IMG/VR virus record: IMGVR_UViG_3300025284_000066
Source: an uncultured virus (IMG/VR IMGVR_UViG_3300025284_000066)
Taxonomy: Duplodnaviria; Heunggongvirae; Uroviricota; Caudoviricetes
Reading direction: 5' to 3' (one strand)
Length of the DNA stretch: 20,000 nt
The notes beneath the pieces are model-generated. The model had not been told where the DNA came from. It saw only the letters and a list, made by a program, of their open reading frames with translations, and searched no databases. Every line of letters begins with the position of its first letter. The stretch's first letter is position 1. This document shows positions 2,263-17,405 of the stretch, piece after piece. A program made the position numbers and the translations under genes.

Positions 2263-5200
2263 ATGGCTGGCGAAACTCTCAAGCCCTTCGACGGGCAACT
2301 CGATACCACACCGCACAACCTCACCCCGTTTTCGGGTGAGCTCGATCCGCCCGATGCAAAGCGCACCGTGCTCGGCACCGTAAAGGATGTCGGGGTCACG
2401 GCGCTGAAGGGCGCGGTCGGCCTTCCGCAGAGCGTCGTCGGCCTGGCTGACATCGTGACGGGCGGCCGCGCTGGCAAAGCTCTGGAGCAGGCCGGCGTCG
2501 GCTTCGAGGAGACACAGAAGTTCCTCGACGACCAATATTCCGACGCGCAGAAGGCCGCCAACCGCAAGGTGCAGGCGGCCGATGGCTTCGTCGATACGGC
2601 CAAGACCATGCTGGAGAACCCCAGCACCATCGCTACCAGCGTGGGCGAGTCGATTCCACAGATGCTCGGCGGCGCGGGCGTCGCGCGCGGCTTGCTCAAG
2701 GTGGCGCCCAAGATTGCGCCGGCCATCGCTGGCGCCATCGGTGAGGGCGTGCTGGGAGCGGGCTCGCAGGCCGAGCAGATCCGCCAAGAGACGCAGGACG
2801 GGTTGCTCACCCCGAAGCAGGCGGCTCTGTCCGCCGCGACCGGTGCCGCTACTGCTGGCTTCGGTGCACTCGGCGGACGCCTGGCGCAGCGCCTTGGCAT
2901 CGGCGATGCCGACACGATGCTGGCGCAGGGAGCCATCCACGGCGCCGGGCCCGCCTCGCAGCGTTCGCTCGCGCGCCAGGTTGGCGCTGGCATGCTGTCC
3001 GAGGGCGTGCTCGAAGAGCTGCCGCAGTCGATGTCCGAGCAGGCGCTGCAGAACCTCGCGCTGGACAAGCCCGTCGGAGAAGGTGTCGGCAAGGCCGCCG
3101 CCGCCGGGTTGCTCGCGGGCGGCGCCATGGGCGGCGGGGCCGCGCTGTTGCACGGCGCGACTGGTCAGCATGCCCCGAATCAGGCGGAGCCCGGTAGCGC
3201 GGAGCGCGTGCCCGGCGAGCAGCTCTCGCTGTTGCCGGTGGACGAAGCTCCGGCAGCCGCGGCGGCGAGCGAGCTGCCCGCCGTTGCGGGTGGCCTGGCC
3301 AGCGTGCAGCGCACCTTCGATCCGCGCGACCCGGGCAGCCGGCCGCCGCTGGACGTGATGCCCACGGCCCCCACCGATGGAGTGGAGTTCGAGGCGGCGC
3401 CGCAGGTCGCGCGCGAGTTCAGCACGGGCAATCTTTCGCTCGCTGATGAAGCACAGCCCGTGCGCCCCTCCGAAAAGATGGGGCTGGACCCTGCAGCAGG
3501 CCCGCTGTCCACTGCCGCCGCGATGGCGGTGGATGGTGGCGCGCACGACGTGATGAACGCGGCCGCTCAACTCGCCGCTCAGGCCGAAGCCGCCGACGGC
3601 AAGGGCACGAAGCCGGCAGCAGCTTCTCCGGCACCCGCCAGTGTGCCGATGGCGAACGTCAACGCCGAAACCGGCGAGATCTCCGGACAACCGCAAGACC
3701 GAGAGGCCGAACTGCGGGCACGCCTGGAGTTCGTGCGCCAACAGGCCGCGTCGAACGGCTGGGACCAGCGCCTGATCGCCGAGCGCGACAGCGCGCGAGC
3801 TGAACTGGCCGCACTTGCGCCCGCTGCCGCAGCGCCGACCAGCGTGCAGGAGGGCATCGCTCAAGCGCGCGCCCGCCGCGCAGCGCCCGAATCCGCACCG
3901 CAACCCAAAGGAGAAGCCCTTGGCACTCAAGCCGACCAAGCCCAGCAAGCAGGCACGCAACAAGCGCCGGCAGGAACAGAAGCGCCAGCAGCTGAGCCAA
4001 TCGCGTCCGCCACAACGCTGACGCCCGCGCCGGCAGCACCGGCTGTACCGAACGCGAAGCGCGAGAAGGCGGTGCGCCGCGTGGAAGAAGGGCGCGCATG
4101 GTTCTTGTCCCGCGACAAGGCGCAGTCCTTCGTGGACACGTCGGGCCTCGCGGACACGCACGAAGTGGTGCCGGACAACCGCCGTTTCGTTGTGCAGGCC
4201 AAGGCCGAGCAGCCGGCACAGGATGCGCAGCCGCAAACCGCTGCGCCGGCCGATCAGCTGGCGGACCTGCGCCGCCGACGCGCCGAGGCCGAGCCGGGCA
4301 CGCCCCTGCGCCGCGACATCGATAACGACATCGCGGCGTTGGAGCGCGAACAGCAGCAAGCAGTTCGCCGGCCTGAAGCGGTAGCGCCGGTGGATGCTGC
4401 GGCGAACGAAGCCGCCACCAGCCCGCAGAACGACCTGCCCGAGCCTAGTCAGGCCCAGAAAGAGGCGGGCAACTACAAGATGGGCCACCTGTCCGGTGAC
4501 GAGGTACAGGGCCTGCGCATCAGCGTGGAGAACCCGCACGGCAGCACGCGCAGCGGCACCTCGCCGGACGGGACCGAGTGGAGCAACACGATGGCCGCGC
4601 ACTACGGCTACGTGAAGGGCTCCGAGGCAGCAGACGGCGACCACGTGGATGTGTTCGTCGGGCCGGCAGCCGCGACAGCACCGACGGTCTACGTGGTGGA
4701 CCAGATCAACGCGGATGGCTCCTACGACGAGGCCAAGGCGCTGATGGGGTTCAACAGCGAAGCCGAGGCCTTGGCCGCCTACAAGGGGAGTTACAACAAG
4801 GGCTGGAAGGTCGGTCCGGTCACCGCGATGTCGATGGACGACTTCAAGGCTGCGCTCGCGGACGGGCGCCTGAAGAAGCCGCTCTCGTCCACATTGAGCG
4901 AGTCCGTGCGCGAATCCTCGCCCGCTCCAGCAGCGCAGCGCGCTACGACGATGGAGACGGCGCGCACCGCGCTGGCTTCGTACTTCGATTGGTATCTCAG
5001 CCGCAATCCGAAGGCATCCCGTCCGATGGGCGGGATCTATCAGGGCAACAGCTTCACGCTCGACTCCGGCGGCGCGCCATTCACGAAGGCGGGCCAGGTG
5101 CAGGTGAACGGCTTTAAGGAACTGACCTTCAACTACACGGCCGCGTGGAAAGAGGCTCAGTCGCGCGCCGCCGCAGCAGCGCCGGCCGCCGCCCCGATTG

Positions 5201-8200
5201 CTGCTACCAACGCAGGAGACGAAAATGGACGAAATGCAGGAACTGTACCGACCGAACGACTACCCGCCGCCGATCAAGGAAGCGATGCGCGCGATGCCGG
5301 CGCTGGCGACCGAGATCGCCAACCGGTGGATGCTCGGGTGGCCGAAGCGGGTGAAGGCGCTGATCGAGGCGAGCGAGTTCCTGCGGGCGCTGAAGGAGCA
5401 GGAGGAGGCCGAGCGGAGGGCGTACAGCGACTCCGGGAATCGGCACCTGGCGAGGCACGAGATAGCCGAGTTGTACGGCCTGAGCGACAGTCCGCCGACG
5501 CTGTAGCCGACCCGGCGACCGCCGAGGCCTCGCCAAAGCCCGAGCTCGACCAGTCGGGCGACCACACGCTGGATGCCGACGATATCGGCAAGGGTGGGCT
5601 CACCAAGAAGTACCGCGACAACATCGCTGCCATCCGCATCCTGAAGGCGCTCGCCAGCGAGAGCCGCAAGGCCACCCCGGAGGAGCGCAAGCAGATCGCG
5701 CGCTACGTCGGCTGGGGTGCGCTGAAGGGCGTGTTCGACCCGCAGAACAAGCAGTGGGCCAAGGAATTCGCCGAGCTGCGCGAGTTGTTGACCGATGCCG
5801 AGTACAAGGCCGCTCGCGCGTCGATGCTGAACGCGCACTACACGGCGCCGGTGGTGGTCAACGGCATCTACGATGCGCTCGAGCGCATGGGGTTCACCGC
5901 TGGCCGCGTTCTCGAACCGGCGGTGGGAACCGGCAACTTCTTCGGCCTGATGCCCGCGAGCATGCGCAAGCGCTCGCAGCTGCATGGCGTGGAGCTGGAC
6001 CCGCTCACCAGCCAGATCGCGGCGGCGCTGTATCCGAGCGCCAAGGTGGCGCGGGCCACCGCGTTCCAGGACTTCCAGGCCCCGTCCGAGTACTTCGACC
6101 TGGCGGTGGGCAATCCGCCATTCGGCTCGGAGCCCATCGTCGATGACGACCGCTCGCCGTATTCGGGTTTCTCGATCCACAACTACTTCTTCGCCAAGAG
6201 CATCGACAAGCTGCGCCCCGGTGGCCTGCTGACTATGGTGGTGTCGCACAACTTCCTTGACGCCAAGAACGAAGCAGCACGGCAGTGGATCGCCGATCGG
6301 GCCAACCTGGTGGCAGCGGTCCGGCTGCCGCGAACCGCGTTCAAGGAGAACGCCGGCACCGACGTGGTGACCGACATCGTGGTGCTCCAGAAGAAAACGG
6401 AATCCGAGCGCGCGAACGGATTGGGCGATGCGGCGTGGGTGAAGGTCGGCCAGCAGACCCTCACCAACCCGAAGACCGGCGAGGCGACGCAGCACAACGT
6501 CAGCAGCTACTTCCTGACCAATCCCGATGCGGTGCTGGGCACGCCGGTGGCGGCCGGAGCGATGTATCGCCTGGGCGAGTACACGGTGGAGCCCTCTGGC
6601 GATCTGGCGCAACAGCTGAAGGCATGGGCCACCGCGCTCCCGGAAGACCTCTATCAGCCTGTGGAGCGCACGCACGAGCAGGAAGCCGCCGACGTGGTGG
6701 TGCCTGACGGTGTGAAGGTCGGTTCGTTCTACGTGGACGACAGCGGCCGCGTGCAGATGCGCGGCCCGGATTCGCTGGGCAACCGAACGGCAGAGCCGTG
6801 GACGCCGCCCAACGTGAAGGCTGCCGAGCGCATGAAGGGGATGGTGGGCCTGCGCGACGCGCTGCGAGCACAGATGCGCCTGGAGCGCTCCCCGGACTCG
6901 ACCGACGGACAGATCGAGCAGCACCGCCGCGAGTTGAATCGCCTCTATGACGGGTTCCAGAGCAAGTACGGCTACCTGAACGACCCGACCAACCGCCGCA
7001 TCTTCCTGGACGACACCGAGTCGGCCCTGGTGCTGGCGCTGGAGTTCGACTACGACCGTGGCGTGAGCAAGGCGGTGGCCGAGCGCGAGGACATCGAACC
7101 GCGTGCGCCCAAGGCGATCAAGGCCGACATCTTCGCGCGGCGCGTGATGTTCCCGCCCGCGGACAACATCAAGGTGAGCAACGCCAAGGACGCGCTGCTG
7201 GCCAGCCTGAACTACAAGGGCCGGCTGGATGCCGCCTACATGGCGACGCTGTACGACAAGTCTCCGGCCCAGATCGTGTCGGAGCTTGGTGACGTGGTGT
7301 ATGCCGACCCGGTGAATGGGCTCGTGATGGCCGACGAATATCTGTCGGGCGACGTGAAGACGAAGCTGGCCGAAGCAGAAGCCGCCGCGCGTGACGACCC
7401 GGCGCTGCGCCGCAACGTGGAGGCCCTGCGCAAGGTCATTCCGGCCGACAAGCGGCCGAGCGAGATCCACGCGGCCATGGGCGCGGCTTTCATTCCACCG
7501 GAGCTGTTCCAGCAGTTCGCCAAGGAAGTGACCGGCGCCGAAGCGCGCGTCACCTACCTGCGCGCTACCGGCCAATGGCTGGTGGACTACACGTCCCAGC
7601 CCAACCCGGCGCTCAACACGGCGAAGTGGGGCATTGGCAGGATGACCGCGCAGAACATCTTCATGCGCACGATGGCCGGCCAGGGCGTGGTGGTCACGGA
7701 CACCATCCGCGACCCGAACGGTGGTACCCGCACCGTGGTGCTGGAGAAGGAAACGGAGGCCGCGCGCGAGAAGCAGGCCGCGATGAAGGCCGAATGGCAG
7801 CGCTGGCTGTGGAGCGACCCTGAGCGCGCCGACCGTGTGGCGGGCATCTACAACGACAAGATGAACCGCATCGTGGTGCGGCGCTTCGATGGCTCGCACA
7901 TGACCTTCCCGGGCATGTCGCCCGCGATGGAGTTGCTGCCGCACCAGAAAGATGCCGTATGGCGCGCGCTTCAGCAGCGCCAGATCCTGCTGGATCACGT
8001 CGTCGGTGCTGGCAAGACCTTCGAGGTTGTGGCTGCCATCATGGAAATGCGCCGGCTGGGCATCGCGCGAAAGCCAATCGTCACGGTGCCCAACCACCTC
8101 ACCCTGCAGTGGCGCAGCGAGTTTTCGCGCCTGTACCCGGCGGCCAACGTGCTGGCGGCCACGCCCGATGACTTCACCAAGGGCAACCGGGAGAAGTTCT

Positions 8201-11200
8201 TCTCCAAGATCGTCACCGGCGACTGGGATGCCGTCATCATCGGCCACTCCAGCCTGAAGAGGATCGCGCTGCCGGCCGAAACGGAAAAGGCCGTGCTGGA
8301 AGAGCAGATTACCGAGCTGGCCGACAGCATCGGCGAAATGAAGCGCGCCCGCGGCGACCGGAATGTCGTGCGCGACATGGAGAGCATCAAGGCCCGCCTG
8401 GAAGCCCGCATGAAGCAGCGCGTGCAAGCCCTTGGCGAGCGCGACAAGGTGGTGACCTTCGACGAGCTCGGCGTCGATGCTTTCGCCATCGACGAGCTGC
8501 ACGAGTTCAAGAACCTCTTCTACAACTCCACCATGGAGCGCGTGCCCGGCATGGGCAACCCCGGCGGCTCGGACAAGGCGTTCGACCTGTTCGTGAAGGC
8601 GCAGTACCTCTTCGACGCGCTGGGGGACAAGGCGCCGCTGATGGGCGCGACCGGCACGCCGGTTTCCAACAGCCTGGTGGAAATGTTCAATATGCAGCGG
8701 TTCCTGCAGTACCCGACGCTGAAGGCGCAGGGCCTGCACGTCTTCGACGCCTGGGCCAAGCAGTTCGGCAGCGTGGAATCGCTGTACGAGGTGTCGCCGT
8801 CTGGGACCGGCTACCGCCAGGCCTCGCGCTTCGCCAAGTTCAAGAACCTGCCGGCGCTGATGGGCATGTACCAGACCTTCGCCGACACGGTGACGCTGGA
8901 CGATCTGAAGGCGCAAGAGGAAGCCCGAGGCCGCACATTCCCGGTGCCGCAGGTGGCCGGCGGCCGCCCGGTGAACGTGGTGGCGAAGCGCTCGCCGGAG
9001 GTGGCCAACTTCATGGGCGTGCCGCAACTGGACATCCAGGGCGGGCGAGTGCAGTTCGGGTTCAACCCGGCCGCTGGGGAGCGCGCAGTTATCGAGAAGG
9101 CCGAGGACGGCAACAGCTGGCGCGCCGAAACCCGCGTGCCGCAGCCCGACGAGAAGGAGATTCGGCAGCTGATCGGCTCGGCCAAGACCGAAGAGGATGC
9201 CAAGCTGCTGGTGGTCGAAGCCGCCCTGTCGCCCAAGATCAAGGTGGACCCGAAGTCGATCCTCGGCCAGTTCGCCGACCTGAAGCGGCTGACGAAGGAA
9301 ACGAAGGGGAAGGTCAACGCGCTGTCGCTGACCGGCCAAGCCAACAAGGCGGGCTTGGACTTCCGCCTGATCGACCCGTCGGCGCCCGACTTCGAGGGCT
9401 CGAAGATCAATCTCGCCGTCGACCGCATGCTGGGCACCTACCAGAAGTGGACCAGCGACCGAGGAACGCAACTGGTCTTCTGCGACCTGTCCGTGCCCCT
9501 CTCGGCACGCAGCGGCTTCGGCAGCAAGGAGCGGCGCGTGTACGTGCGAGACGACGGCGCCCTGGTGCACAAGAAGGGCACCATGCACACGGTTCGCGGC
9601 CACGAAGACTTGCCGTTCTTCGTGGTGAAGGAGGGCGGCAAGGACGCCAAGGCCTTCGCCATCTACGACGCCGCCACGGGCTTGCGCGTGCACGCCGGCC
9701 TGCCGGCCAAGGGCATTGCGACCGACTGGGCGGCGCAGGCCCTGAACGACGACGGCCGCCGCCAGCGCTGGATCGACGCCCGCGACCGCATCGGCGACCT
9801 CCAGCAGGACGAGATCGACGACTACAACAACGCCAACGAGATCGACACCGAGGAAACCGAATCGATCTCGCTGGCCGACATCGCAGGCATGTCGGGAGCC
9901 ACCGCGTTCTCGGTGTACGACGACATCAAGGGCAAGTTGATGGCGCGCGGCGTGCCGGAGCGCGAAATCGCCTTCATCCACGACTACAACACGCCCGCAG
10001 CGAAGGACAAGCTGTTCAAGGCGGTGAATCGGGGCGACATCCGCTTCCTGCTGGGCTCCACGCCGAAGATGGGCGCCGGCACCAACGTGCAGGAGCGCCT
10101 GGTCGGGCTGCATCACATTGACGCGCCCTGGCGCCCGAGCGACCTGGAGCAACGCGAGGGCCGCATCATCCGCCGCGGCAATGCGCTCTATGCTCGTGAC
10201 CCGGATGGTTTCGAGGTGGAAATCTACCGCTACGCCACCGAGCAGACCTACGACACCCGCCGGTGGCAGATCCTGGAGCACAAGGCTCGCGGCATCGAGC
10301 AGCTGCGTAAGTACGACGGCACCCTCAACGAGATCGACGACATCGAGGGGGAGGCCGCCAACGCGGCCGACATGAAGGCCGCCGCCTCGGGCGACCCGCT
10401 CATCCTGGAAGAAACACGGCTCCGCAACGATGTGCGCCGCCTCGAATCACTGCAAGCCTCCCACGCGGACGAAACGGCTTCGATGGTGCGCCAGGCGCGC
10501 GACCAACAACGCTTCGCGCAAGACTGGGGCCCGAAGGAGCTGGAAACGTTCCGAGGTCTGCAGGCTGCCGCCGAGGCCAACCCGGTGCCCAAGGATGGCT
10601 TCGCTGGCCTGACCGTTGCCGGGAAGACGATCACCGACCGCGAAGCGGCTATCAAGGCCGTCAAGCGGGGCATCGATCGTGTGTTCGTAAGCGGCGGGCA
10701 GGAGGAGTTCCAGTACCGAGGCGTGACCTTCATGCTGGAAGGCACGCCCGACCACGTGGAGCTCAATTCGCCCACCGGTGGGCTGGATTCCTATCGGCCG
10801 GCCAGGGACGTGCTGCCGTCGGCGGCGGGCATCCTGACCCGCTTCGGCAACTACATCAACCGTCTCCCGGCGCACATCGTCGACCTCGATGCGAAGATCA
10901 CGGAAGCGAAGCAGGCGGCAGTGCAATTGCGCGAGCAGGCCGGCAAGCCATTCGCCCAGGCGAAGGAGCTGGAGTCAGCACGCGAGGCACATCGCCGGGT
11001 GCAGCGCCGGCTCGTGGCGAAGGGGCCGGACATCCCGCTGAACCAGCGACCCGCCCTGCAGAAGGCCATGGCCGAGCAGCGCCAGCAGCTCATCGAGCAG
11101 GGGTTCGGGGATACGCTCGAGGAGTTCGGCGGTGGCGCCGACGATGCGCAGTTCCGCCGGGACGGGACCGAAATGCTGTCGCCCGAGGCAGCCAGAGCCA

Positions 11201-14200
11201 TGCGGGCGCTCCTGCCCAACTACTCGCCGCAGGCTCGCGCACAGGCTGTAGCGTCTGTGACCAAGACGGTGGAGGCGATTCGCGCCGGTTGGGGCAACGG
11301 GCCCGAGGTGATCGTGGCGTTCGACATGGGCGACCCGGTTGTGCCCGGGGCGGCCCGCCGCGCGGACCTGAAGCAGCGCAGCGGCGGCGCACGGGGCGCT
11401 CCCGAGGGCTTCTACTACCGTGGCAAGGCCTACTTGATGGCCTCGCGGCTGCCCACGGCCAACGATGCGGCGCGCGTGCTCTTTCACGAAGTACTCGGCC
11501 ACCACGGGCTGCGCGGCCAGTTCGGCAAGGGGCTGGATGACGTGCTGAACCAGATCGGCACCATGCGCCGCGCCGACGTGGACGCGAAGATCAATGAATA
11601 CGGGCTGCGCGGCGTCAACAAGCTCGACCGGCGCGCCGCGGCGGAGGAAGTCCTGGCCGAAATGGCGCAGACCCATCCCGAACTGCACTTCGTGCGTCGC
11701 GCCATCGCCGCGATCCGCACCTGGCTGCGCGAGCACGTGCCGGGCTTCAGCAACCTGCGGATGACGGACGACGAGATCGTGCGCAACTTCATCCTGCCGG
11801 CTCGGCGCTTCGTTGAGCAGGGCGGCCCGGACGGCGGGCCCAGCGACGGGCTGCGCTTCAGCCGTGGTGACGCGGGCCCCGCCTCGACCAACAGCCTCGA
11901 TGCCCCCATCGCCGCCGACGACGACGGTGTAGCGAACTTCTGGCACTGGTACAGTGGGCAGGATGGAAGCCTCAAAGACACCCGAAGCGGCACGCAAGGA
12001 TCTGGAGGAACTGCTGGCGGAGCTGCCGCCGGTGGGCCCGGCCGAGATGGCGGCGCATCTGGGCGACTCGGACCCGTTGATGCGCAAGGCCGCCCGCTCG
12101 TATTTTTCCACGGCACGCGAGACGACTTCACCGCGTTCGATACCGAGCACCCAAACCGAAAAGACGTAGGCTGGCTTGGCCGCGGCGTCTACGGTGCGAG
12201 CGACCCGGCGGACGCCAACTACTATGCCGGCGCAAAGCGCGGCGGCGGTGGGCAGCGCGTCATGCCGCTGTACTTCGCGGTCACGAACCCCTACGTTGCC
12301 ACGCCGGAAATCAAGGCCCGTCTGAAGCGGGCCACGCAGGCGCAGGTCGATCGCTTCACGGCAAACCTGCGCGCGATGGGGCACGACGGCGTGACGCTCA
12401 CTGCCGAAGATGGCTCGGTGGAGATCGTCGCGTTCGATCCCAGCCAGGTGAAATCGGCCATCGGCAACAGTGGGGCATTCGACGCTGGCACCTCGGACAT
12501 CCGGTTCAGCCGATCCACGGTGCAGGACTTCGCCAAGAAGGCCACCGCCGAGCTCAATAAGACTTTCAATGCGCCCGGCAAGTTGTCCTGGTGGCACAAG
12601 ACCGTGGGCACCATGTACAACCTCGCGGAGCGTTCGCCAGCCTTCAAGGCGGTGTTCGACTCAGCGCAAGGGTTCGTCGACGACGTGAGCTTCTACGCCA
12701 ACGACGCGGCCGAACTGGCGCCCAAGCTGCTGCCGAAGCTGGAGACGTGGCGCGACATCAAGAAAGCGCCGGTGGCCGCGGCCGACAACGCCGCAGTGGC
12801 GAAGCCAGTCTTCGAAGGCACGCTGACCTGGGCGCGAGACGAACAGGGCAAGCCGGTACCGGTGCAGTCGCTCATCGACGCGGCGGCCGAGCTGTCGGCC
12901 GACCAGAAGGCGCAGCGCCTGCTGCGAAACGGGCAGATCGACGAGCGCATGCTGAAGGCATGGCAGGGCATGCCCCTGGAGTCCTACGAGAAGGCTATCA
13001 ATACGCGCTTCGAGTCGCGCATGCTGCAGCCGGGCGTCGTCTGGACCGATGCGGAGCTGCGCTCCATGTTCAAGCTCTCGGACGATCAGATCGCGCTCTA
13101 CCACGAGTTCCGCGAGACGACCGACCGGAGCCTGGACACGATGGCGCGCGCCGACATGCTGCGTTTCGTGGGCGACGATGCCAAGGGCATGCGTGGCATG
13201 GTGATGGATGCGCCGGATGCCCAGGCGGCGGCCGTGCTGCTGCGCGATCACCTGGTGCAGCTGGCCAACGAGCAGCCTGACCGCGCGACCCAGATCCTGA
13301 ATACCGCCAACGGCATCATCGACCGGGCCGACAAGGTGCGCGACCTGCAGGCCCGTGGGTATGCGCCGCTGTCACGCTTCGGCCGCTACTCGGTCGACGT
13401 GGTGGACGCTGCCGGCGAGCGGCAGTACTTCGGCCTGTTCGAGACGGCACGCGAGGCCAACAATATGGCCGCCCAGATGCGGGAGGAGTTCGGCGATGCC
13501 ACCGTCACCCAGGGCACACTGTCGGAGGAGGCCTTCAAGCTCTTCGCTGGCGTGACGCCCGAGACGCTGGAACTCTTCGGCAATGCCCTCGGCCTCGATT
13601 CGACCGGTGACAGCGCGCAGGACCAGGCTTTCCAGGAATACCTGCGGCTGACGAAGACCAACCGCAGCGCAATGCGGCGGCTGATCCATCGCAAGGGCAT
13701 CGCCGGTTTCAGCGAAGACGTGGGCCGCGTGCTGGCTTCCTTCATCTACTCGAACGCGCGCCAGACGGCCGCCGGCCTGCACATGGGCGACCTCGGCGAG
13801 GCGGTGCAGGCCATCCCGAAGGAACAGGGCGAGCTGAAAGATGCCGCCGTGCGCCTGGCCGACTATGTGAAGAACCCGCAGGAGGAGGCGCAGGCGGTGC
13901 GCGGGCTGCTGTTCGCGCAGTACCTGGGTGGCTCGGTGGCGTCGGCGTTCGTGAACATGACCCAGCCTATCGCGGTGACGATGCCGTGGCTGAGCCAGTA
14001 CGGCGGCGCGCGCGCGGCGGCCGCGCAGATCGGCCGGGCCGCGAAGAACATCGCCACGCGCGGCTTCGAATACGAACCGGATCTCGCTGCGGCGCTCAAG
14101 CGCGCCGAGGACGAGGGGACCGTGAGCCCGCAGGAGGTGCACCAGCTGATGGCGCAGGCGCGCGGCGCGAGCTCGCTGCGCTCCGGCGATGGCACGCGCG

Positions 14201-15390
14201 GCGGCGAGCTGCGCGCGATGGGCCAGAACGCGCTGTCGCGCTTGTCGCTGGCATGGGGGAAGCTCTTCGGCGCCGCCGAGCAGGTGAATCGCCGCATCAC
14301 CTTCATCGCGGCCTACCGAACGGCGAAGGCGCAGGGCATCGAAGACCCGGCAGGATTTGCTCGCAAGGCGATCACCGAGACGCAGTTCCTCTACTCGAAG
14401 GCGAACAAGATGGAGTGGGGCAGGGGGGCGATCGGCGGCACGCTGATGACCTTCAAGACCTACTCGGTGGCTTACCTCGAGCTGCTGCACCGCATGTACA
14501 CGCAGGGTGGGCCAGAGGGCAAGCGCGCCGCGCTGCTGGCGCTGGGCATGCTGATGCTGATGGGCGGCGCCGGCGGGCTGCCGTTCGAGGAAGACCTGGA
14601 GGATGCGGTCGACGCGCTGGCGCAGATGCTCGGCTACAACTTCTCGACGAAGAAGGCCCGCCAGGAATTTCTGGAGAGCCTGCTGCCGAAGCCGATCGCG
14701 CAGTTCATCGACAAGGGCGTGAGCGGTCTGCCCGGCGCGCCGCTGGATGTGTCGGGCCGCCTCGGCATGGGCAACCTGATTCCGGGCACGGGCCTGCTGC
14801 TGGAGAAGACCAGCCACGCGCGCGACCTGCTGGAGATCGCGGGCCCGGCCGGCGACTTCGCCAGCCGCATCCTCTCCGGCGGCCGCAGCATGCTCACTGG
14901 CGACGTGGGCGCCGGGCTGCTGGAAATGTCGCCCGCAGCGGTGCGCAACGCGGCCAAGGGCGTGGACATGGCCGCGACCGGCATGTATCGGGATGCCAAG
15001 GGCTACAAGGTGCTGGACACGAACACGCTGGAGGCGGCCCTCAAGGGCATCGGCTTCCAGCCGAACAGCGTGGCCACCATCCAGGAGGCGAACGGCATCA
15101 ACCAGGGCGCGAAGGCGTTCTACAACCTGCGTGCGCAGGAGATCCGGGCGCTGTGGGCACAGGGCGTGTTCGAGGGCGACCAGCAGAAGGTGCAGGAAGC
15201 CCGCGACCAGGTTGCCGCGTGGAACCGGAAGAACCCTGAGCAGCCGATGCTCGTACGCATCCCCGACGTGATGCGCCGGGTGCGGGAAATGCGCAAGTCC
15301 AAAGATGAGCGGATCGCTGATACCGCGCCGCGGGCGATGCGTGCTCAGATGCGCGAAGAGGCGGCTCGGGCACGTGCCGACACCATGTAG
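2263..15390 (+). CDS. Giant polyvalent virion-injected protein (4375 aa): Gly/Ala-rich N-terminus, InPase, DarB-like N6-adenine methyltransferase plus SNF2 helicase, metallopeptidase, ART-PolyVal-like ADP-ribosyltransferase, PLxRFG C-terminal region
   Basis: InPase motifs GNYKMGH/ENPHGSTRSG/YGY/DGDHVDVF (~4400-4875). Methyltransferase LEPAVGTGNF and NPPF (6112-6123). Helicase GAGKT (8005-8019), DELH (8491-8502), ATGTP, QREGRIIRRGN. HEVLGH (11485-11502). FHGT (HGT 12109-12117)...EIVAFDPSQVKS. PLSRFG (13366-13383). Strong GC3 bias in this frame. Confidence 0.92.
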   Translation: MAGETLKPFDGQLDTTPHNLTPFSGELDPPDAKRTVLGTVKDVGVTALKGAVGLPQSVVGLADIVTGGRAGKALEQAGVGFEETQKFLDDQYSDAQKAANRKVQAADGFVDTAKTMLENPSTIATSVGESIPQMLGGAGVARGLLKVAPKIAPAIAGAIGEGVLGAGSQAEQIRQETQDGLLTPKQAALSAATGAATAGFGALGGRLAQRLGIGDADTMLAQGAIHGAGPASQRSLARQVGAGMLSEGVLEELPQSMSEQALQNLALDKPVGEGVGKAAAAGLLAGGAMGGGAALLHGATGQHAPNQAEPGSAERVPGEQLSLLPVDEAPAAAAASELPAVAGGLASVQRTFDPRDPGSRPPLDVMPTAPTDGVEFEAAPQVAREFSTGNLSLADEAQPVRPSEKMGLDPAAGPLSTAAAMAVDGGAHDVMNAAAQLAAQAEAADGKGTKPAAASPAPASVPMANVNAETGEISGQPQDREAELRARLEFVRQQAASNGWDQRLIAERDSARAELAALAPAAAAPTSVQEGIAQARARRAAPESAPQPKGEALGTQADQAQQAGTQQAPAGTEAPAAEPIASATTLTPAPAAPAVPNAKREKAVRRVEEGRAWFLSRDKAQSFVDTSGLADTHEVVPDNRRFVVQAKAEQPAQDAQPQTAAPADQLADLRRRRAEAEPGTPLRRDIDNDIAALEREQQQAVRRPEAVAPVDAAANEAATSPQNDLPEPSQAQKEAGNYKMGHLSGDEVQGLRISVENPHGSTRSGTSPDGTEWSNTMAAHYGYVKGSEAADGDHVDVFVGPAAATAPTVYVVDQINADGSYDEAKALMGFNSEAEALAAYKGSYNKGWKVGPVTAMSMDDFKAALADGRLKKPLSSTLSESVRESSPAPAAQRATTMETARTALASYFDWYLSRNPKASRPMGGIYQGNSFTLDSGGAPFTKAGQVQVNGFKELTFNYTAAWKEAQSRAAAAAPAAAPIAATNAGDENGRNAGTVPTERLPAADQGSDARDAGAGDRDRQPVDARVAEAGEGADRGERVPAGAEGAGGGRAEGVQRLRESAPGEARDSRVVRPERQSADAVADPATAEASPKPELDQSGDHTLDADDIGKGGLTKKYRDNIAAIRILKALASESRKATPEERKQIARYVGWGALKGVFDPQNKQWAKEFAELRELLTDAEYKAARASMLNAHYTAPVVVNGIYDALERMGFTAGRVLEPAVGTGNFFGLMPASMRKRSQLHGVELDPLTSQIAAALYPSAKVARATAFQDFQAPSEYFDLAVGNPPFGSEPIVDDDRSPYSGFSIHNYFFAKSIDKLRPGGLLTMVVSHNFLDAKNEAARQWIADRANLVAAVRLPRTAFKENAGTDVVTDIVVLQKKTESERANGLGDAAWVKVGQQTLTNPKTGEATQHNVSSYFLTNPDAVLGTPVAAGAMYRLGEYTVEPSGDLAQQLKAWATALPEDLYQPVERTHEQEAADVVVPDGVKVGSFYVDDSGRVQMRGPDSLGNRTAEPWTPPNVKAAERMKGMVGLRDALRAQMRLERSPDSTDGQIEQHRRELNRLYDGFQSKYGYLNDPTNRRIFLDDTESALVLALEFDYDRGVSKAVAEREDIEPRAPKAIKADIFARRVMFPPADNIKVSNAKDALLASLNYKGRLDAAYMATLYDKSPAQIVSELGDVVYADPVNGLVMADEYLSGDVKTKLAEAEAAARDDPALRRNVEALRKVIPADKRPSEIHAAMGAAFIPPELFQQFAKEVTGAEARVTYLRATGQWLVDYTSQPNPALNTAKWGIGRMTAQNIFMRTMAGQGVVVTDTIRDPNGGTRTVVLEKETEAAREKQAAMKAEWQRWLWSDPERADRVAGIYNDKMNRIVVRRFDGSHMTFPGMSPAMELLPHQKDAVWRALQQRQILLDHVVGAGKTFEVVAAIMEMRRLGIARKPIVTVPNHLTLQWRSEFSRLYPAANVLAATPDDFTKGNREKFFSKIVTGDWDAVIIGHSSLKRIALPAETEKAVLEEQITELADSIGEMKRARGDRNVVRDMESIKARLEARMKQRVQALGERDKVVTFDELGVDAFAIDELHEFKNLFYNSTMERVPGMGNPGGSDKAFDLFVKAQYLFDALGDKAPLMGATGTPVSNSLVEMFNMQRFLQYPTLKAQGLHVFDAWAKQFGSVESLYEVSPSGTGYRQASRFAKFKNLPALMGMYQTFADTVTLDDLKAQEEARGRTFPVPQVAGGRPVNVVAKRSPEVANFMGVPQLDIQGGRVQFGFNPAAGERAVIEKAEDGNSWRAETRVPQPDEKEIRQLIGSAKTEEDAKLLVVEAALSPKIKVDPKSILGQFADLKRLTKETKGKVNALSLTGQANKAGLDFRLIDPSAPDFEGSKINLAVDRMLGTYQKWTSDRGTQLVFCDLSVPLSARSGFGSKERRVYVRDDGALVHKKGTMHTVRGHEDLPFFVVKEGGKDAKAFAIYDAATGLRVHAGLPAKGIATDWAAQALNDDGRRQRWIDARDRIGDLQQDEIDDYNNANEIDTEETESISLADIAGMSGATAFSVYDDIKGKLMARGVPEREIAFIHDYNTPAAKDKLFKAVNRGDIRFLLGSTPKMGAGTNVQERLVGLHHIDAPWRPSDLEQREGRIIRRGNALYARDPDGFEVEIYRYATEQTYDTRRWQILEHKARGIEQLRKYDGTLNEIDDIEGEAANAADMKAAASGDPLILEETRLRNDVRRLESLQASHADETASMVRQARDQQRFAQDWGPKELETFRGLQAAAEANPVPKDGFAGLTVAGKTITDREAAIKAVKRGIDRVFVSGGQEEFQYRGVTFMLEGTPDHVELNSPTGGLDSYRPARDVLPSAAGILTRFGNYINRLPAHIVDLDAKITEAKQAAVQLREQAGKPFAQAKELESAREAHRRVQRRLVAKGPDIPLNQRPALQKAMAEQRQQLIEQGFGDTLEEFGGGADDAQFRRDGTEMLSPEAARAMRALLPNYSPQARAQAVASVTKTVEAIRAGWGNGPEVIVAFDMGDPVVPGAARRADLKQRSGGARGAPEGFYYRGKAYLMASRLPTANDAARVLFHEVLGHHGLRGQFGKGLDDVLNQIGTMRRADVDAKINEYGLRGVNKLDRRAAAEEVLAEMAQTHPELHFVRRAIAAIRTWLREHVPGFSNLRMTDDEIVRNFILPARRFVEQGGPDGGPSDGLRFSRGDAGPASTNSLDAPIAADDDGVANFWHWYSGQDGSLKDTRSGTQGSGGTAGGAAAGGPGRDGGASGRLGPVDAQGRPLVFFHGTRDDFTAFDTEHPNRKDVGWLGRGVYGASDPADANYYAGAKRGGGGQRVMPLYFAVTNPYVATPEIKARLKRATQAQVDRFTANLRAMGHDGVTLTAEDGSVEIVAFDPSQVKSAIGNSGAFDAGTSDIRFSRSTVQDFAKKATAELNKTFNAPGKLSWWHKTVGTMYNLAERSPAFKAVFDSAQGFVDDVSFYANDAAELAPKLLPKLETWRDIKKAPVAAADNAAVAKPVFEGTLTWARDEQGKPVPVQSLIDAAAELSADQKAQRLLRNGQIDERMLKAWQGMPLESYEKAINTRFESRMLQPGVVWTDAELRSMFKLSDDQIALYHEFRETTDRSLDTMARADMLRFVGDDAKGMRGMVMDAPDAQAAAVLLRDHLVQLANEQPDRATQILNTANGIIDRADKVRDLQARGYAPLSRFGRYSVDVVDAAGERQYFGLFETAREANNMAAQMREEFGDATVTQGTLSEEAFKLFAGVTPETLELFGNALGLDSTGDSAQDQAFQEYLRLTKTNRSAMRRLIHRKGIAGFSEDVGRVLASFIYSNARQTAAGLHMGDLGEAVQAIPKEQGELKDAAVRLADYVKNPQEEAQAVRGLLFAQYLGGSVASAFVNMTQPIAVTMPWLSQYGGARAAAAQIGRAAKNIATRGFEYEPDLAAALKRAEDEGTVSPQEVHQLMAQARGASSLRSGDGTRGGELRAMGQNALSRLSLAWGKLFGAAEQVNRRITFIAAYRTAKAQGIEDPAGFARKAITETQFLYSKANKMEWGRGAIGGTLMTFKTYSVAYLELLHRMYTQGGPEGKRAALLALGMLMLMGGAGGLPFEEDLEDAVDALAQMLGYNFSTKKARQEFLESLLPKPIAQFIDKGVSGLPGAPLDVSGRLGMGNLIPGTGLLLEKTSHARDLLEIAGPAGDFASRILSGGRSMLTGDVGAGLLEMSPAAVRNAAKGVDMAATGMYRDAKGYKVLDTNTLEAALKGIGFQPNSVATIQEANGINQGAKAFYNLRAQEIRALWAQGVFEGDQQKVQEARDQVAAWNRKNPEQPMLVRIPDVMRRVREMRKSKDERIADTAPRAMRAQMREEAARARADTM
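3920..4021 (+). CDS. Candidate overprinted basic peptide (33 aa, MALKPTKPSKQARNKRRQEQKRQQLSQSRPPQR) in the +1 frame of the giant gene
   Basis: AGGAG at 3909-3913, 6 nt before a TTG start. By hand count 26 of 33 codons end in G/C, while the host frame here uses many A-ending codons (CAA, GGA, GCA, ACA). Confidence 0.5.
   Translation: MALKPTKPSKQARNKRRQEQKRQQLSQSRPPQR
5225..5506 (+). CDS. Overprinted 93-aa helical protein of unknown function in the +1 frame of the giant gene
   Basis: AGGAG at 5214-5218, 6 nt before ATG. By hand count 86 of 93 codons end in G/C. The sequence looks globular (EIANRWMLGWPKRVKALI). The host frame here is a G/R/A/D-rich linker with atypical codons (CGA, GGA, CTA, GAT). 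Confidence 0.8.
   Translation: MDEMQELYRPNDYPPPIKEAMRAMPALATEIANRWMLGWPKRVKALIEASEFLRALKEQEEAERRAYSDSGNRHLARHEIAELYGLSDSPPTL
11963..12169 (+). CDS. Candidate overprinted 68-aa protein (MEASKTPEAARKDLEELLAELPPVGPAEMAAHLGDSDPLMRKAARSYF...) in the +1 frame, overlapping the start of the ART domain
   Basis: Extended -10 TGgTACAGT (11947-11955), then 7 nt, then ATG (leaderless geometry). Codon bias favours the +1 frame for roughly the first 48 codons. The host frame there is a Gly-rich low-complexity insert. Confidence 0.55.
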   Translation: MEASKTPEAARKDLEELLAELPPVGPAEMAAHLGDSDPLMRKAARSYFSTARETTSPRSIPSTQTEKT

Positions 15391-16877: not shown

Positions 16878-17405
16878 ATGATGCTGCCCGACCTCAAGAC
16901 GCCTCTGCTGTGGGCACTCAGCCTTGCACTCGTCGCCGCGCTGGCCACGGCCGGCATCGAGCGCACGCGCGCAGCTGGTGCTCGCGCCGATGCTGCTGCA
17001 GCTCGCAAGGATCTCGCCGACTACCGTGCCTCACAGGCCGAATCCGGCCGGCTGGCCGAGCGCGCCGCGCGCACCCAAGAACAGACCTGGCGCGCTCGCG
17101 TCGATGGAGTGATTCAAGATGGTCAAAAACAGATTGCCCGTGCTCGGGATGATGCTGGCCGTGCTGGTGCTGCTGAACGCCGGCTGCGCGAACAGCTTGC
17201 CGCCTATCGCGCCGCCGTCCGCGCAGCCACCACAGCGGCCGGCCCTGCCGGCGGAAGCCCGCCAGCCGAAGCCGCCCTCGATCTGCTTGCCGACCTGCTC
17301 AGCGGGAGTGGAGCGGCTCTTCGGGAGCTGGGGCAATTCGCTGACGCCTCCTACAGTGCAGGAACCATCTGCGAGCGGCATGCCGACGCGGTGAGTACGC
17401 CGTAG
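16878..17405 (+). CDS. Rz: Rz-like inner-membrane spanin (175 aa)
   Basis: GGAGG SD, N-terminal TM helix, Ala/Arg-rich coiled coil, C-terminal Cys, directly after the endolysin. Confidence 0.85.
   Translation: MMLPDLKTPLLWALSLALVAALATAGIERTRAAGARADAAAARKDLADYRASQAESGRLAERAARTQEQTWRARVDGVIQDGQKQIARARDDAGRAGAAERRLREQLAAYRAAVRAATTAAGPAGGSPPAEAALDLLADLLSGSGAALRELGQFADASYSAGTICERHADAVSTP
17119..17394 (+). CDS. Rz1: Rz1-like outer-membrane lipoprotein spanin, fully embedded in Rz (+1 frame)
   Basis: GGAG at 17106-17109. Signal peptide with lipobox LLNAG|C. Pro-rich mature region with CxxxC. Embedded architecture as in lambda Rz/Rz1. Confidence 0.85.
   Translation: MVKNRLPVLGMMLAVLVLLNAGCANSLPPIAPPSAQPPQRPALPAEARQPKPPSICLPTCSAGVERLFGSWGNSLTPPTVQEPSASGMPTR

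Follow-up and report, generated by a model that had tools for sequence, protein, structure and literature searches.

A functional, separately initiated gene for a 93-amino-acid protein very probably lies nested within the giant DarB-like gene of the viral DNA stretch analysed here (20,000 nucleotides; hereafter the window), with the same bases read as a linker in the host frame. Features of the locus are listed in Table 1. Judged from the sequence, some ribosomes would start internally at the AGGAGA/ATG site and others would pass through it in the host frame, and the same ~280 nt would be read twice, once as a folded small protein and once as a host-frame linker.

Table 1. Features of the nested gene, its host gene and the spanin locus in the window.
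Feature	Coordinates	Strand	Remarks
Host gene, 4,375-aa polyvalent DarB-like virion-type protein	2263..15390	+	InPase, N6A methyltransferase, SNF2 helicase, ART-PolyVal; phrog_10089
InPase domain (aa 730-865 of host), last recognised module 5' of the overlap	4450..4857	+	PF18823, E 2.6e-47
Host-frame read-through of nested gene (~aa 980-1081)	5200..5505	+	Low-complexity linker without stops and, by its substitution pattern, without amino-acid constraint
Shine-Dalgarno-like AGGAGA	5214..5219	+	5 nt 5' of nested ATG at 5225
Nested gene	5225..5506	+	93 aa, then TAG; +1 frame of host gene
Conserved methyltransferase-helicase cassette, beginning	5506..6942	+	Host frame
Eco57I-like N6-adenine methyltransferase core (aa 1262-1352)	6046..6318	+	Domain match
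SNF2/ResIII helicase region (aa 1889-2639)	7927..10179	+	Domain match; Helicase_C included
Rz-like spanin gene with embedded ORF	16878..17405 (embedded ORF 17119..17394)		DUF2514 and phrog_312 matches (Rz-like)

The original prediction had assigned a Shine-Dalgarno sequence and an ATG start to the small ORF, and both are present in the window. From this ATG, 93 sense codons lead to a TAG stop at 5504-5506; a second ATG (5234, MQELY) corresponds to the start that is conserved family-wide. As had been claimed, 86 of the 93 codons end in G or C (two of the others end in T and five in A), the motifs RWMLGWP and RHEIAELYGL are found in the small-frame translation, and the giant frame has a shadow-type composition over the nested bases, with a low-complexity G/A/R/D/E translation. 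Between positions 5260 and 5439 third-position G+C was 0.98 in the small frame versus 0.48 in the host frame, and the host frame had values of 0.83-0.93 on both flanks of the nested gene; codon-position G+C changes frame exactly at this gene.

ORF length alone is weak evidence here, since the DNA is rich in G+C (67%) and the window contains 78 ORFs of at least 80 amino acids. Among 24 same-strand alternative-frame ORFs of at least 60 amino acids within the giant gene, the nested ORF is an outlier (GC3 0.90 versus a median of 0.63). It was also the sole one of five tested in which differences from close relatives occur mainly at its own third codon position. The other four (2582-3358, 3815-4021, 4190-4384 and 4578-5117) acquire stops in the comparison with close relatives and were dismissed as shadows. 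By these properties and by the homologues, selection and conserved start described below, positions 5225-5506 are a real nested gene rather than a shadow ORF.

The host gene combines the features of a DarB-like polyvalent gene, namely an N6-adenine methyltransferase fused to an SF2/SNF2 helicase in a multi-domain virion-type protein, and its product matched phrog_10089 (DarB-like antirestriction) with 2065 bits. The predicted position of the nested gene directly 5' of the methyltransferase-helicase was borne out, as homology of this cassette to its relatives starts at 5506, the last base of the nested stop. The earliest canonical host-frame start after the nested stop is located at 5731, and the host coding frame is free of stops all the way to 15390.

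Conservation of the small protein in the +1 frame, in part as stand-alone ORFs, had been named as an expectation, and conserved homologues were indeed found, some of which stand alone. They comprise 62 loci (29 viral, 33 genome) plus phage 8P of Pseudomonas stutzeri, which encodes a 90-aa protein, with identities of 36-99%. One fragment (G001) encodes a small protein identical to that of the window. When 64 loci (window included, not de-duplicated; individual loci carry L numbers below) were classified, the host frame was open far on either side of the small ORF in 40, opened 67-799 nt 5' of the small gene in six, was open across the small ORF but short in nine, and was interrupted in the remaining nine. 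In the window and in 46 of the 64 loci (the two open classes, 40 + 6), the small ORF lies wholly inside a longer same-strand ORF in another frame. Methyltransferase homology was detected downstream in 47 loci, and in 46 of these it is in the -1 frame. DNA similarity of the window to phage 8P starts at 5233, at the beginning of the small gene, and the modules 5' of the small gene vary among loci (InPase, SLT, C5 methylase, GGDEF, ddrB-ParB plus PBECR1, LPD1). Judged by these arrangements, the small gene and the methyltransferase-helicase travel as one cassette that is joined to varied N-terminal modules.

Stand-alone copies occur on DNA of plasmid or ICE type where no methyltransferase-helicase is next to them, and these copies have pN/pS values of 0.20-0.41. 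Their neighbours, all separately encoded, include a relaxase plus LPD7, KfrA/KfrB, an Rv2179c-like 3'-5' exonuclease and HAD_SAK_2; one HAD_SAK_2 fusion of the small protein was found. Hosts of the family span Acinetobacter to a cyanobacterium, with a nearly invariant core, IANRWMLGWP. The small frame was never open beyond 255 aa in the 64 loci. Only five longer forms of the small protein were present among proteins of 164-2000 aa, and 136 of 139 representative clusters consist of proteins of 38-264 aa; the three longer ones (697, 1164 and 2809 aa) gave weak matches over short stretches only. Small-frame openness and protein lengths do not fit an LPD-type in-frame domain of a polyvalent protein.

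Differences between close nested pairs sit mostly at the third position of the small frame. For such pairs the small frame had pN/pS values of 0.11-0.34, compared with 1.3-3.3 for the host frame across the shared bases; two pairs that show no more than 6 and 9 differences are not included in these ranges. A dN/dS ratio near 1 had been proposed as the mark of a non-functional relic; the values obtained in the small frame are those of purifying selection. It is therefore highly improbable that the small ORF is a fossil, that is a pre-fusion gene which now codes for a linker and has still to decay. Such a fossil might persist, given that its bases are needed as host-frame linker and simple deletion is impossible. 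Within nested clades, however, the contrast between the two frames points to continuing purifying selection; moreover, ORF, ATG, stop and Shine-Dalgarno site are retained down to 36% identity, and a DNA divergence of 7-25% is enough for the four shadow ORFs of the giant gene to lose their frames. Of 36 nested loci, 23 have a core of at least 4 nt matching AGGAGGT 5' of the small start; at random positions within these loci the frequency is 12.8%. The ORF, start, stop and Shine-Dalgarno site of the small gene are all conserved.

The host frame was examined for stop codons over the small ORF in 22 representative nested loci, which we chose from 36, one per clade. Not a single stop was present where 76.9 were expected; in the control +1 frame of the same loci there were 124 stops versus 88.6 expected. 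As far as substitutions and stop counts tell, selection acts on both frames, in the small frame on amino acids and in the host frame against stops, and the host frame over the overlap behaves as a linker free of constraint apart from one detectable requirement, the absence of a stop codon. The region would represent a clean natural case of dual coding with separable constraints, amino acids in one frame and openness in the other. Deleting, truncating or recoding the 'linker' of the giant gene would also strike a second gene.

Two more small-protein families occupy the same position and frame, a PEp14/Itty13/SopranoGao-type and a Gervaise/Bcep22-type family. In all 13 cultured phages of these sister families that were examined, the host frame contained no stop (1.3-8.9 expected), and GC3 of the small frame was 0.70-0.90, as opposed to 0.33-0.47 for the host frame. 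The 69 unique IMG/VR loci of the PEp14 type likewise had no host-frame stop versus 284 expected, the control frame showing 373 versus 249.8; the host frame was open over the whole locus in 67 of the 69, and a Shine-Dalgarno core was present in 61 of the 69 as compared with 14%. Deposited phage records matching the sister families number 62 (21 PEp14-type, 41 Gervaise/Bcep22-type; GenBank and RefSeq copies counted separately), and the record of phage 8P matches the family of the window. None of these listed matches has a nested CDS, the giant CDS alone being annotated, nor was one found in any of the 11 regions opened in detail. A conserved gene is apparently missing from phage annotations; gene callers forbid overlaps of the nested type.

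Synonymous resampling gave a probability that the host frame is open of 0/5000 for seven nested loci of 39-48% G+C (L012, L013, L014, L016, L029, L045 and L048) and of 0.001 for L010. The corresponding values were 0.19 for the window and 0.13-0.26 for its close G+C-rich relatives. The case for the window rests on its relatives, because its own host frame would be open by chance about once in five times. Taken by themselves, the latter values are compatible with an annotation artefact in which the giant ORF is in fact two or three genes and the frame over the small gene is open by chance in G+C-rich DNA, the more so as 86 of 93 G/C-ending codons leave few T-ending codons to make stops in the -1 frame. 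This reading is disfavoured, and we regard it as extremely improbable, on the following grounds: (i) the lack of host-frame stops in the 22 representative loci, which include Acinetobacter-type loci of 39-41% G+C with ~8 stops expected in each; (ii) the equally stop-free sister family; (iii) the upstream coding frame, which meets no stop before 15390; (iv) the conserved beginning of the methyltransferase module, for which no start codon is available.

This last feature would also suit a frameshift, in which the small ORF is reached by a +1 shift from the host frame, the N-terminal part gaining an alternative C-terminal domain, or in which ribosomes that started at the small ATG shift by -1, close to the end of the small ORF, into the methyltransferase-helicase frame. 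Such a mechanism would agree with the exact -1 relation of the host frame to the small frame in 46 of the 47 loci with a downstream methyltransferase, with the match of the sister family to C-terminal profile positions of phrog_938, and with two arrangements in which an upstream part is in frame with the small ORF, in phage PBC5 (sister family) and in P0118 (LPD37 plus small domain). These two arrangements fit expression as a C-terminal extension as well, and either could be due to an indel or a sequencing error. We nevertheless consider frameshifting improbable. A canonical X_XXY_YYZ slippery heptamer occurred in the small frame of only one of the 22 representative loci, at a non-conserved place, and a programmed -1 ribosomal frameshift cassette was rejected for want of a conserved heptamer in this set; an Rfam scan of positions 4900-5800 returned no element. 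The host frame is stop-free along the entire small ORF and not just at its end, which would be needless if ribosomes entered from the small frame. In L013, L018 and L029 a stop closes the small frame merely 2-5 codons before the ATG. Finally, the small ATG and its Shine-Dalgarno site are conserved, and the same methionine starts the stand-alone homologues.

With regard to its origin, the nested gene had been thought to be a once-free gene in front of a darB-like gene that was retained upon in-frame fusion of this cassette into an ejection protein. The first part of this proposal is plausible: the -1 host frame is the relation produced by a 4-nt ATGA/GTGA stop-start overlap, and in L059 a GTGA junction still joins the small gene to an exonuclease gene that follows it in the -1 frame. 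That nesting is a by-product of the ejection-protein fusion did not hold. In six loci without a large N-terminal fusion (L028, L045, L046, L047, L048 and L062) the methyltransferase-helicase ORF opens 67-799 nt upstream and reads through the entire small gene under selection against stops, so that nesting is independent of the fusion to ejection parts. A small gene standing free directly 5' of a methyltransferase-helicase gene with its own start was not found among the 64 loci, and several of the stand-alone copies that exist today resemble leftovers of nested cassettes. We propose that the overlap arose by overprinting. The small gene would once have preceded the methyltransferase-helicase gene, with an ATGA/GTGA-type overlap setting the -1 relation, and the downstream gene would then have lost its start and extended in the 5' direction through the small gene. 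Such an extension is likely where DNA is rich in G+C and the -1 frame has a 15-40% chance of being open. The overlap might then have been locked and have spread to A+T-rich hosts, in which selection would keep the host frame open. With the nested gene as the older and the linker frame of the host as the younger partner, the overlap resembles the preserved scar of a gene fusion, and it suggests one possible assembly route of polyvalent proteins, in which a downstream gene is extended through a functional upstream neighbour and both are locked thereafter.

The AlphaFold2 model of the small protein consists of five helices (pLDDT 85.8, pTM 0.76). Searches with the protein of the window retrieved no family from Pfam or PHROGs, no match at E up to 1 from NCBIfam or PADLOC, nothing in a PDB sequence profile search, and unnamed clusters only from the ESM Atlas. 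Foldseek comparison of its model with PDB and BFVD gave E values above 3 throughout, and VIA-align wide found no usable fold match (best Z 4.8, unrelated chain). Our leading guess, offered tentatively, is that the small protein is a co-expressed accessory of the DarB-like module, possibly a chaperone, loading factor or regulator. In that case, the search for accessory factors of DarB-like anti-restriction proteins would have a concrete candidate. Prediction of a complex with the first 479 residues of the methyltransferase module gave no answer (score 0.00) and counts neither for nor against binding.

Nearly as likely as this partnership, and ranked just below it, is that the small protein acts autonomously, as an anti-defence or establishment factor of mobile elements, with no physical link to the methyltransferase-helicase, and that its gene was trapped by overprinting. 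Autonomy would account for the stand-alone copies, which are under selection on plasmid- or ICE-like DNA where the polyvalent-type genes around them are encoded separately, and for the HAD_SAK_2 fusion; the near-invariance of the core motif from Acinetobacter to a cyanobacterium suggests a conserved target. An obligate cis partnership with the DarB-like module is disfavoured by the purifying selection on copies that lack a methyltransferase-helicase. A structural lead towards autonomy came from the PEp14-type sister family, the model of which had 2apl_A as its best neighbour (Z 7.6, rmsd 2.2 over 64 residues; next Z 5.4). This chain presumably represents a solved member of Pfam DUF1896. DUF1896 is reported, in a passage of PMC6739104, in 98 proteins around AcrIIA9 homologues, alongside ArdA, which would again favour an autonomous factor. 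Members of the PEp14-type family also gave sub-threshold matches to TnpV (PF14198; five of nine members, best E 1.8e-4, 20.7 bits versus a cut-off of 27). TnpV, DUF1896-type and PEp14-type proteins are alike in being small helical proteins of mobile elements. Against autonomy, both leads belong to the sister family and not to the window's own protein: 2apl was not within the top 50 structural rows for the model of the window, and membership of its family in TnpV was rejected, as none of 96 members matched at E up to 1. Moreover, the three small-protein families are all located immediately 5' of a DarB-like module, in over 170 loci examined, and the presumed ancestral stop-start coupling would imply co-expression with it. 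That the two genes are always adjacent says little about a shared function, since overlapped genes are inseparable.

In a profile comparison the family of the window matched the PEp14-type family only weakly, over 57 collinear columns (E 9.8e-4, probability 22%), and hhalign found no match between the former and the Gervaise/Bcep22-type family. It is conceivable, if on the whole doubtful, that the three nested families are remote homologues of one ancestral gene, overprinted by the 5' end of the DarB-like methyltransferase-helicase gene before several phage genera and conjugative elements diverged, whose product is the missing small accessory of DarB-like proteins. As part of the same doubtful reading, this accessory would be a functional analogue of P1 Ulx/DdrA/DarA, with a role in loading, restraining or activating the giant anti-restriction protein. 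If true, few dual-coding regions known in tailed phages would be as widespread or as old as this overlap.

The P1 DarB antirestriction system includes the small accessory proteins Ulx, DdrA, DarA and Hdf. Homology of the window's family to Ulx and DdrA was rejected (hhalign probabilities 1.0% and 0.2%), and tblastn of the small proteins gave no match in P1. The host gene resembles P1 darB in encoding the same methyltransferase plus SNF2 helicase dyad; unlike the host gene, P1 darB opens with the methyltransferase region itself, and no nested ORF occurs on the same strand at its 5' end. Passages of PMC10269572 state that P1 DarB depends on other proteins and that no darA homologue was detected in Bcep22-like phages, with which a hidden accessory gene would fit. 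With its InPase, methyltransferase-helicase dyad and ART-PolyVal modules, the host protein is a textbook polyvalent protein, the dyad being one described for this class (Iyer et al. 2017, PMC5512222), and the stand-alone small genes sit among separately encoded domains of polyvalent type. Unlike such domains, the small protein is out of frame and not part of the giant polypeptide. The passages of the polyvalent-protein survey (PMC5512222) that deal with frameshift, overlap or linker make no mention of an out-of-frame gene. In the literature searched, which did not extend to the original genome paper on Bcep22, genes nested within DarB-like or polyvalent genes were not found described.

As in the overprinting of small viruses, two frames share one stretch, one of them older and constrained and the other younger. 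Known examples are phiX174 B within A and E within D, and tombusvirus p19 within p22, and overprinting in small viruses is attributed to genome compression in tiny genomes. The DarB-like case differs in that it occurs in ~60-kb tailed phages and prophages and in that the nested gene would be the older partner and the host linker the younger. The concept of overprinting is treated in PMC8227390. The nested gene is also comparable to Rz/Rz1 of lambda-like phages, where the smaller gene is complete, has a start codon of its own and sits in the +1 frame within a larger same-strand gene. The two frames of Rz/Rz1 each encode a constrained lysis protein, and the two products interact; by contrast, the DarB-like host frame appears as an unconstrained linker over the overlap, and the nested product is predicted to be a soluble helical protein. 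Such spanin genes form an 'embedded' class in PMC9144972. The window itself carries an Rz1-type ORF of this kind, which begins with a lipoprotein-type signal ending in LNAGC.

The window has a G+C content of 66.7%. The product of its largest ORF matches phrog_10089 ('DarB-like antirestriction', 2065 bits; PHROGs) and carries methyltransferase, helicase and further domains; genes for a lysozyme, an Rz-like spanin and an HNH endonuclease lie 3' of it (Pfam, PHROGs). These domains and downstream genes show that the window comes from a phage or a prophage encoding a virion-type polyvalent protein. The canonical Shine-Dalgarno sequence and ATG claimed for the ORF nested in this host gene are present, and a recount gave exactly the 86 of 93 G/C-ending codons of the original prediction. 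Third-position G+C moves from the host frame to the small frame at about position 5200 and back at about 5510. Between 5260 and 5439 it is 0.98 in the small frame versus 0.48 in the host frame, which has 0.83–0.93 on both flanks of the nested ORF. This low value and the low-complexity host-frame translation over the nested stretch agree with the shadow-type composition ascribed to the giant frame.

Features of the host gene, the nested ORFs and related loci (window positions unless a locus, L, or host amino acids, aa, are given)
Feature	Location	Strand	Remarks
Host ORF	2263-15390	+	13,128 nt, 4,375 codons
InPase	host aa 730-865		Pfam
Eco57I-type N6-adenine methyltransferase	host aa 1262-1352		Pfam
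SNF2/ResIII/Helicase_C	host aa 1889-2639		Pfam
ART-PolyVal	host aa 3273-3406		Pfam
Shine-Dalgarno-like AGGAGA	5214-5219	+	five bases, then ATG of nested gene
Nested ORF	5225 (ATG) to TAG 5504-5506	+	93 sense codons, +1 frame of host ORF
Rz-like spanin gene	16878-17405	+	DUF2514, phrog_312
Embedded Rz1-type ORF	17119-17394	+	91 aa, +1 frame, lipoprotein-type signal ending LNAGC (lipobox)
Nested ORF, Erwinia phage PEp14	L066 1118-1435		unannotated
Nested ORF, Pseudomonas phage Itty13	L067 1124-1447		unannotated
Nested ORF, Ralstonia phage Gervaise	L068 1216-1539		unannotated
Nested ORF, Burkholderia phage Bcep22	L076 701-1024		unannotated
DEDD-type 3'-5' exonuclease genes	L059 4261-4770, L040 4147-4815	+	-1 frame, after small gene, plasmid-like loci

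As DNA of this composition is rich in long alternative-frame ORFs (the window has 78 ORFs of at least 80 aa), the nested ORF was tested through its relatives. In tblastn the window protein matched one deposited phage, Pseudomonas stutzeri phage 8P, whose ORF is 76% identical and shares position, frame and G+C switch; the sole annotation at that place is a 'structural protein'. With the 29 IMG/VR loci and 33 genome loci recovered by pattern scans (36–99% identity), the +1-frame homologues that the original prediction called for were found, some of them stand-alone. Protein databases hold 115 clusters of the small protein, all unnamed or 'hypothetical' and none with a Pfam domain. A profile search of 1.84 billion representatives returned 139 proteins: 136 have 38–264 aa; the other three, of 697, 1164 and 2809 aa, show only short, weak matches. 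The family is characterized by a conserved start (MQxLYxPxxYP), a nearly invariant core (IANRWMLGWP), a HLARHEI/HLSSWEK helix and a C-terminal PP. Four other alternative-frame ORFs of the host gene served as negative controls in comparisons with relatives at 75–93% DNA identity. These long or G+C3-rich ORFs (2582-3358, 3815-4021, 4190-4384 and 4578-5117, all +) differ from relatives on their own first or second codon positions and acquire stops there; they are shadow ORFs. Differences in the candidate ORF fall on its own third codon position, and its sole stop is the terminal one. We consider it highly probable that the nested gene is real, as originally observed.

Each of the two frames is under a different kind of selection. 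Amino-acid constraint was determined for close pairs in which both members came from nested loci, leaving out two pairs that, with 6 and 9 differences, are too close to inform. Small-frame pN/pS was 0.11–0.34 (e.g. 0.061/0.365 for the window and fetched locus L009, and 0.041/0.360 for L041 and L042), whereas host-frame pN/pS over the same columns was 1.3–3.3. A small-frame ratio near 1, as envisaged for a non-functional relic, was thus not seen, and the contrast between the frames points to the small protein as the conserved product of the overlap.

In the stop test, synonymous codons of each small ORF were resampled with the codon usage of its own locus. By chance alone, the host (-1) frame would stay free of stops with a probability of 0.19 in the window, 0.001 for L010 and 0/5000 in seven nested loci of 39–48% G+C (L012, L013, L014, L016, L029, L045 and L048), with 5–8 host-frame stops expected in each. 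The 22 representatives, chosen one per clade from 36 nested loci with defined coordinates, have no host-frame stop versus 76.9 expected; in the other alternative frame, used as a control, 124 stops were counted versus 88.6 expected. Judged by this depletion, ribosomes must cross the nested stretch in the host frame. The first canonical host-frame start after the small stop, at 5731, lies downstream of position 5506, where homology of the methyltransferase module to relatives begins, which is in line with read-through.

Nested and stand-alone copies start with ATG, rarely GTG or TTG, at one alignment position. Among the 36 nested loci, an AGGAGGT core of at least 4 nt lies 5–17 nt upstream in 23 (12.8% of random positions) and one of at least 5 nt in 15 (2.2% of random positions). 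Several loci have a small-frame stop just 2–5 codons 5' of the ATG; canonical slippery heptamers are absent from 21 of the 22 representatives, and Rfam gave no match at the nested region. Because of these features we prefer internal initiation of the small gene, as suggested by sequence, over frameshifting. Two counter-examples were encountered. In Sinorhizobium phage PBC5, which belongs to a sister family (L074, locus 433-1009), the upstream, N-terminal part of the giant protein shares the frame of the small ORF, the CDS as annotated terminates with the small stop, and the methyltransferase frame opens only 268 nt 5' of the small start. Its close relative Atu_ph08 has the usual arrangement. 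The PBC5 junction may be a genuine in-frame variant or the product of a 1-nt indel or a sequencing error. The database protein P0118, in which LPD37 precedes the small domain, may likewise be genuine or stem from an indel or a sequencing error.

The 64 classified loci (the window, 8P and 62 fetched loci) were not de-duplicated, several contigs having been reached twice. The host frame is open far to both sides in 40 (class A), opens only 67–799 nt upstream in six (class B; L028, L045, L046, L047, L048, L062), is open across the small ORF but short in nine (class C), and is broken within the small ORF in nine (class D). A downstream methyltransferase is in the -1 frame of the small gene in 46 of 47 loci with methyltransferase homology, the exception (L055) lying near a contig end. 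In class B the methyltransferase-helicase gene has no large N-terminal fusion; it starts 5' of the small gene, reads through it without a stop (3.0–5.8 expected) and continues for more than 3.9 kb. The nesting therefore belongs to the methyltransferase-helicase cassette as such and is not a consequence of fusion to the ejection protein. Of the evolutionary course originally proposed, an ancestral free upstream gene is plausible, but nesting through fusion to the ejection protein does not hold in view of class B. This cassette is mobile; the DNA of the window resembles that of 8P from 5233 onward, and upstream modules vary by locus (InPase, SLT, C5 methylase, GGDEF, ddrB-ParB with PBECR1, LPD1, or none recognised).

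On the contig represented by L011 and L032 the host frame closes at 4752 with methyltransferase homology going on past the stop, which is a frameshift or nonsense mutation in a metagenome-assembled copy; the frame is intact in the related L033. QLDLF-like host-frame motifs, which presumably resemble the beta-clamp-binding consensus, flank the overlapped stretch in L045 (FQLDLFG at the N-terminus, ~3835-3860) and, just after the small stop, in L047 (KPQLDLLFD) and L062 (KPQLDLFD); in the window the motif is degenerate (KPELDQ, ~5530-5550).

Classes C and D reside mostly on plasmid- or ICE-like DNA, with neighbours including relaxase with LPD7, KfrA/KfrB, a Rv2179c-like 3'-5' exonuclease, HAD_SAK_2 and an N6 methyltransferase. 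These copies are under purifying selection (pN/pS 0.20–0.41); resampling gave 0 stops versus ~26 expected in the -1 frame of seven class C loci and 14 versus ~40 in eight class D loci. Recognisable remnants of the methyltransferase N-terminus follow the small stop in L050 and L038. In a short, unrooted tree of 51 rows (13 duplicate, near-duplicate or truncated loci omitted), classes C and D are interspersed among A and B, L050 is sister to the nested L029 (support 99/90), and Gallionella-type class D copies group with L045 and L028 (98/99). Tree and remnants favour a history in which nested ancestors repeatedly lost the host gene. In L059 the TGA of the small gene overlaps the GTG of an exonuclease gene in the -1 frame; HAD_SAK_2 genes lie nearby downstream of the exonuclease genes of L059 and L040, and in database protein P0122 HAD_SAK_2 is fused to the small domain. 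A 4-nt stop-start overlap places the downstream gene exactly in the -1 frame, the relation seen throughout. The small gene and the methyltransferase-helicase gene may thus once have been coupled by such an overlap in an ancestral operon. The latter gene would then have lost its start and its ORF would have extended 5' through the small gene, a plausible step because the -1 frame is open by chance in 13–40% of resamplings in G+C-rich DNA; the overlap would subsequently have locked the two together. In L053 (3271-4410, +) another host gene overlaps, in the -1 frame, a small-gene homologue with a replaced C-terminus; the 379-aa product of this host gene has a KfrB domain (aa 323-367) starting where small-protein homology ends.

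In other DarB-like phages, similarity to the window is confined to the methyltransferase module and what follows it. Directly 5' of this module, PEp14, Itty13 and Gervaise have an ATG-initiated +1-frame ORF of 105–107 aa with the same G+C switch. Such genes (102–132 aa) form two further families. By tblastn, 21 records were found in Erwinia, Klebsiella, Pseudomonas, Agrobacterium, Ochrobactrum, Vibrio, Sinorhizobium and Microcystis phages, and 41 in 31 Ralstonia and 10 Burkholderia phages, including Bcep22, BcepIL02, DC1, BcepMigl and CSP3. Among the matches listed only the giant gene is annotated, and none of the 10 sister-family phage regions inspected has a nested CDS. All 13 phages examined lack host-frame stops (1.3–8.9 expected), with a GC3 of 0.70–0.90 in the small and 0.33–0.47 in the host frame. 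Sister-family pN/pS was 0.29–0.53 in the small and 0.87–3.3 in the host frame, and ~1 in both for one saturated pair. The 69 unique loci among 76 PEp14-type IMG/VR loci contain no host-frame stop versus 284 expected (control frame, 373 versus 249.8), the host frame is open across the entire fetched locus in 67, and 61 have a Shine-Dalgarno core (14% of random positions). P1 darB has no such nested ORF. In Itty13 (L067), the 'hypothetical protein' CDS annotated at 5006-8467 of record NC_070969 runs antisense to the 1,212-codon open frame that has the methyltransferase homology; in this DNA of 68% G+C, the RefSeq CDS seems to be a shadow ORF of that frame.

The three families may be homologous. 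With hhalign, the window family gave a weak match to the PEp14 type (E 9.8e-4, probability 22%, 57 collinear columns from W35 to P91), and the latter matched the Gervaise type (E 0.0016); window and Gervaise types gave no match. AlphaFold2 with a 96-sequence alignment modelled the window protein at pLDDT 85.8 and pTM 0.76, with predicted helices at 15–22, 26–38, 40–48, 52–68 and 77–84; the order of the four core helices is the same in the PEp14-type model. The net charge of the small protein tends to be slightly negative. The window model had no fold match (Foldseek E >3; best VIA-align Z 4.8), and the protein had no family match in Pfam, PHROGs, NCBIfam, PADLOC, PDB sequence profiles or ESM Atlas and no similarity to P1 Ulx or DdrA. 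Two weak leads exist for the PEp14 type. One consists of sub-threshold Pfam TnpV matches in five of nine members. In the other, the PEp14-type model matched PDB 2apl, which we take to represent DUF1896, at Z 7.6 (rmsd 2.2 over 64 residues; next Z 5.4), a score too low for a helical match to be relied on. DUF1896 is reported to occur near AcrIIA9 homologues, alongside ArdA (PMC6739104).

Embedded out-of-frame genes are known in phages. What sets the present case apart is that a polyvalent DarB-like gene serves as host, that the overlap covers only a linker of it, that the nested gene is apparently the older of the two, and that the arrangement is conserved over several phage genera and three small-protein families. 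No earlier description of it was found in the literature searched, and it is of clear interest for phage genomics and annotation. The window also contains a second, ordinary nested gene, as its Rz-like spanin gene and the Rz1-type ORF within it constitute a classical embedded Rz/Rz1-type spanin pair.
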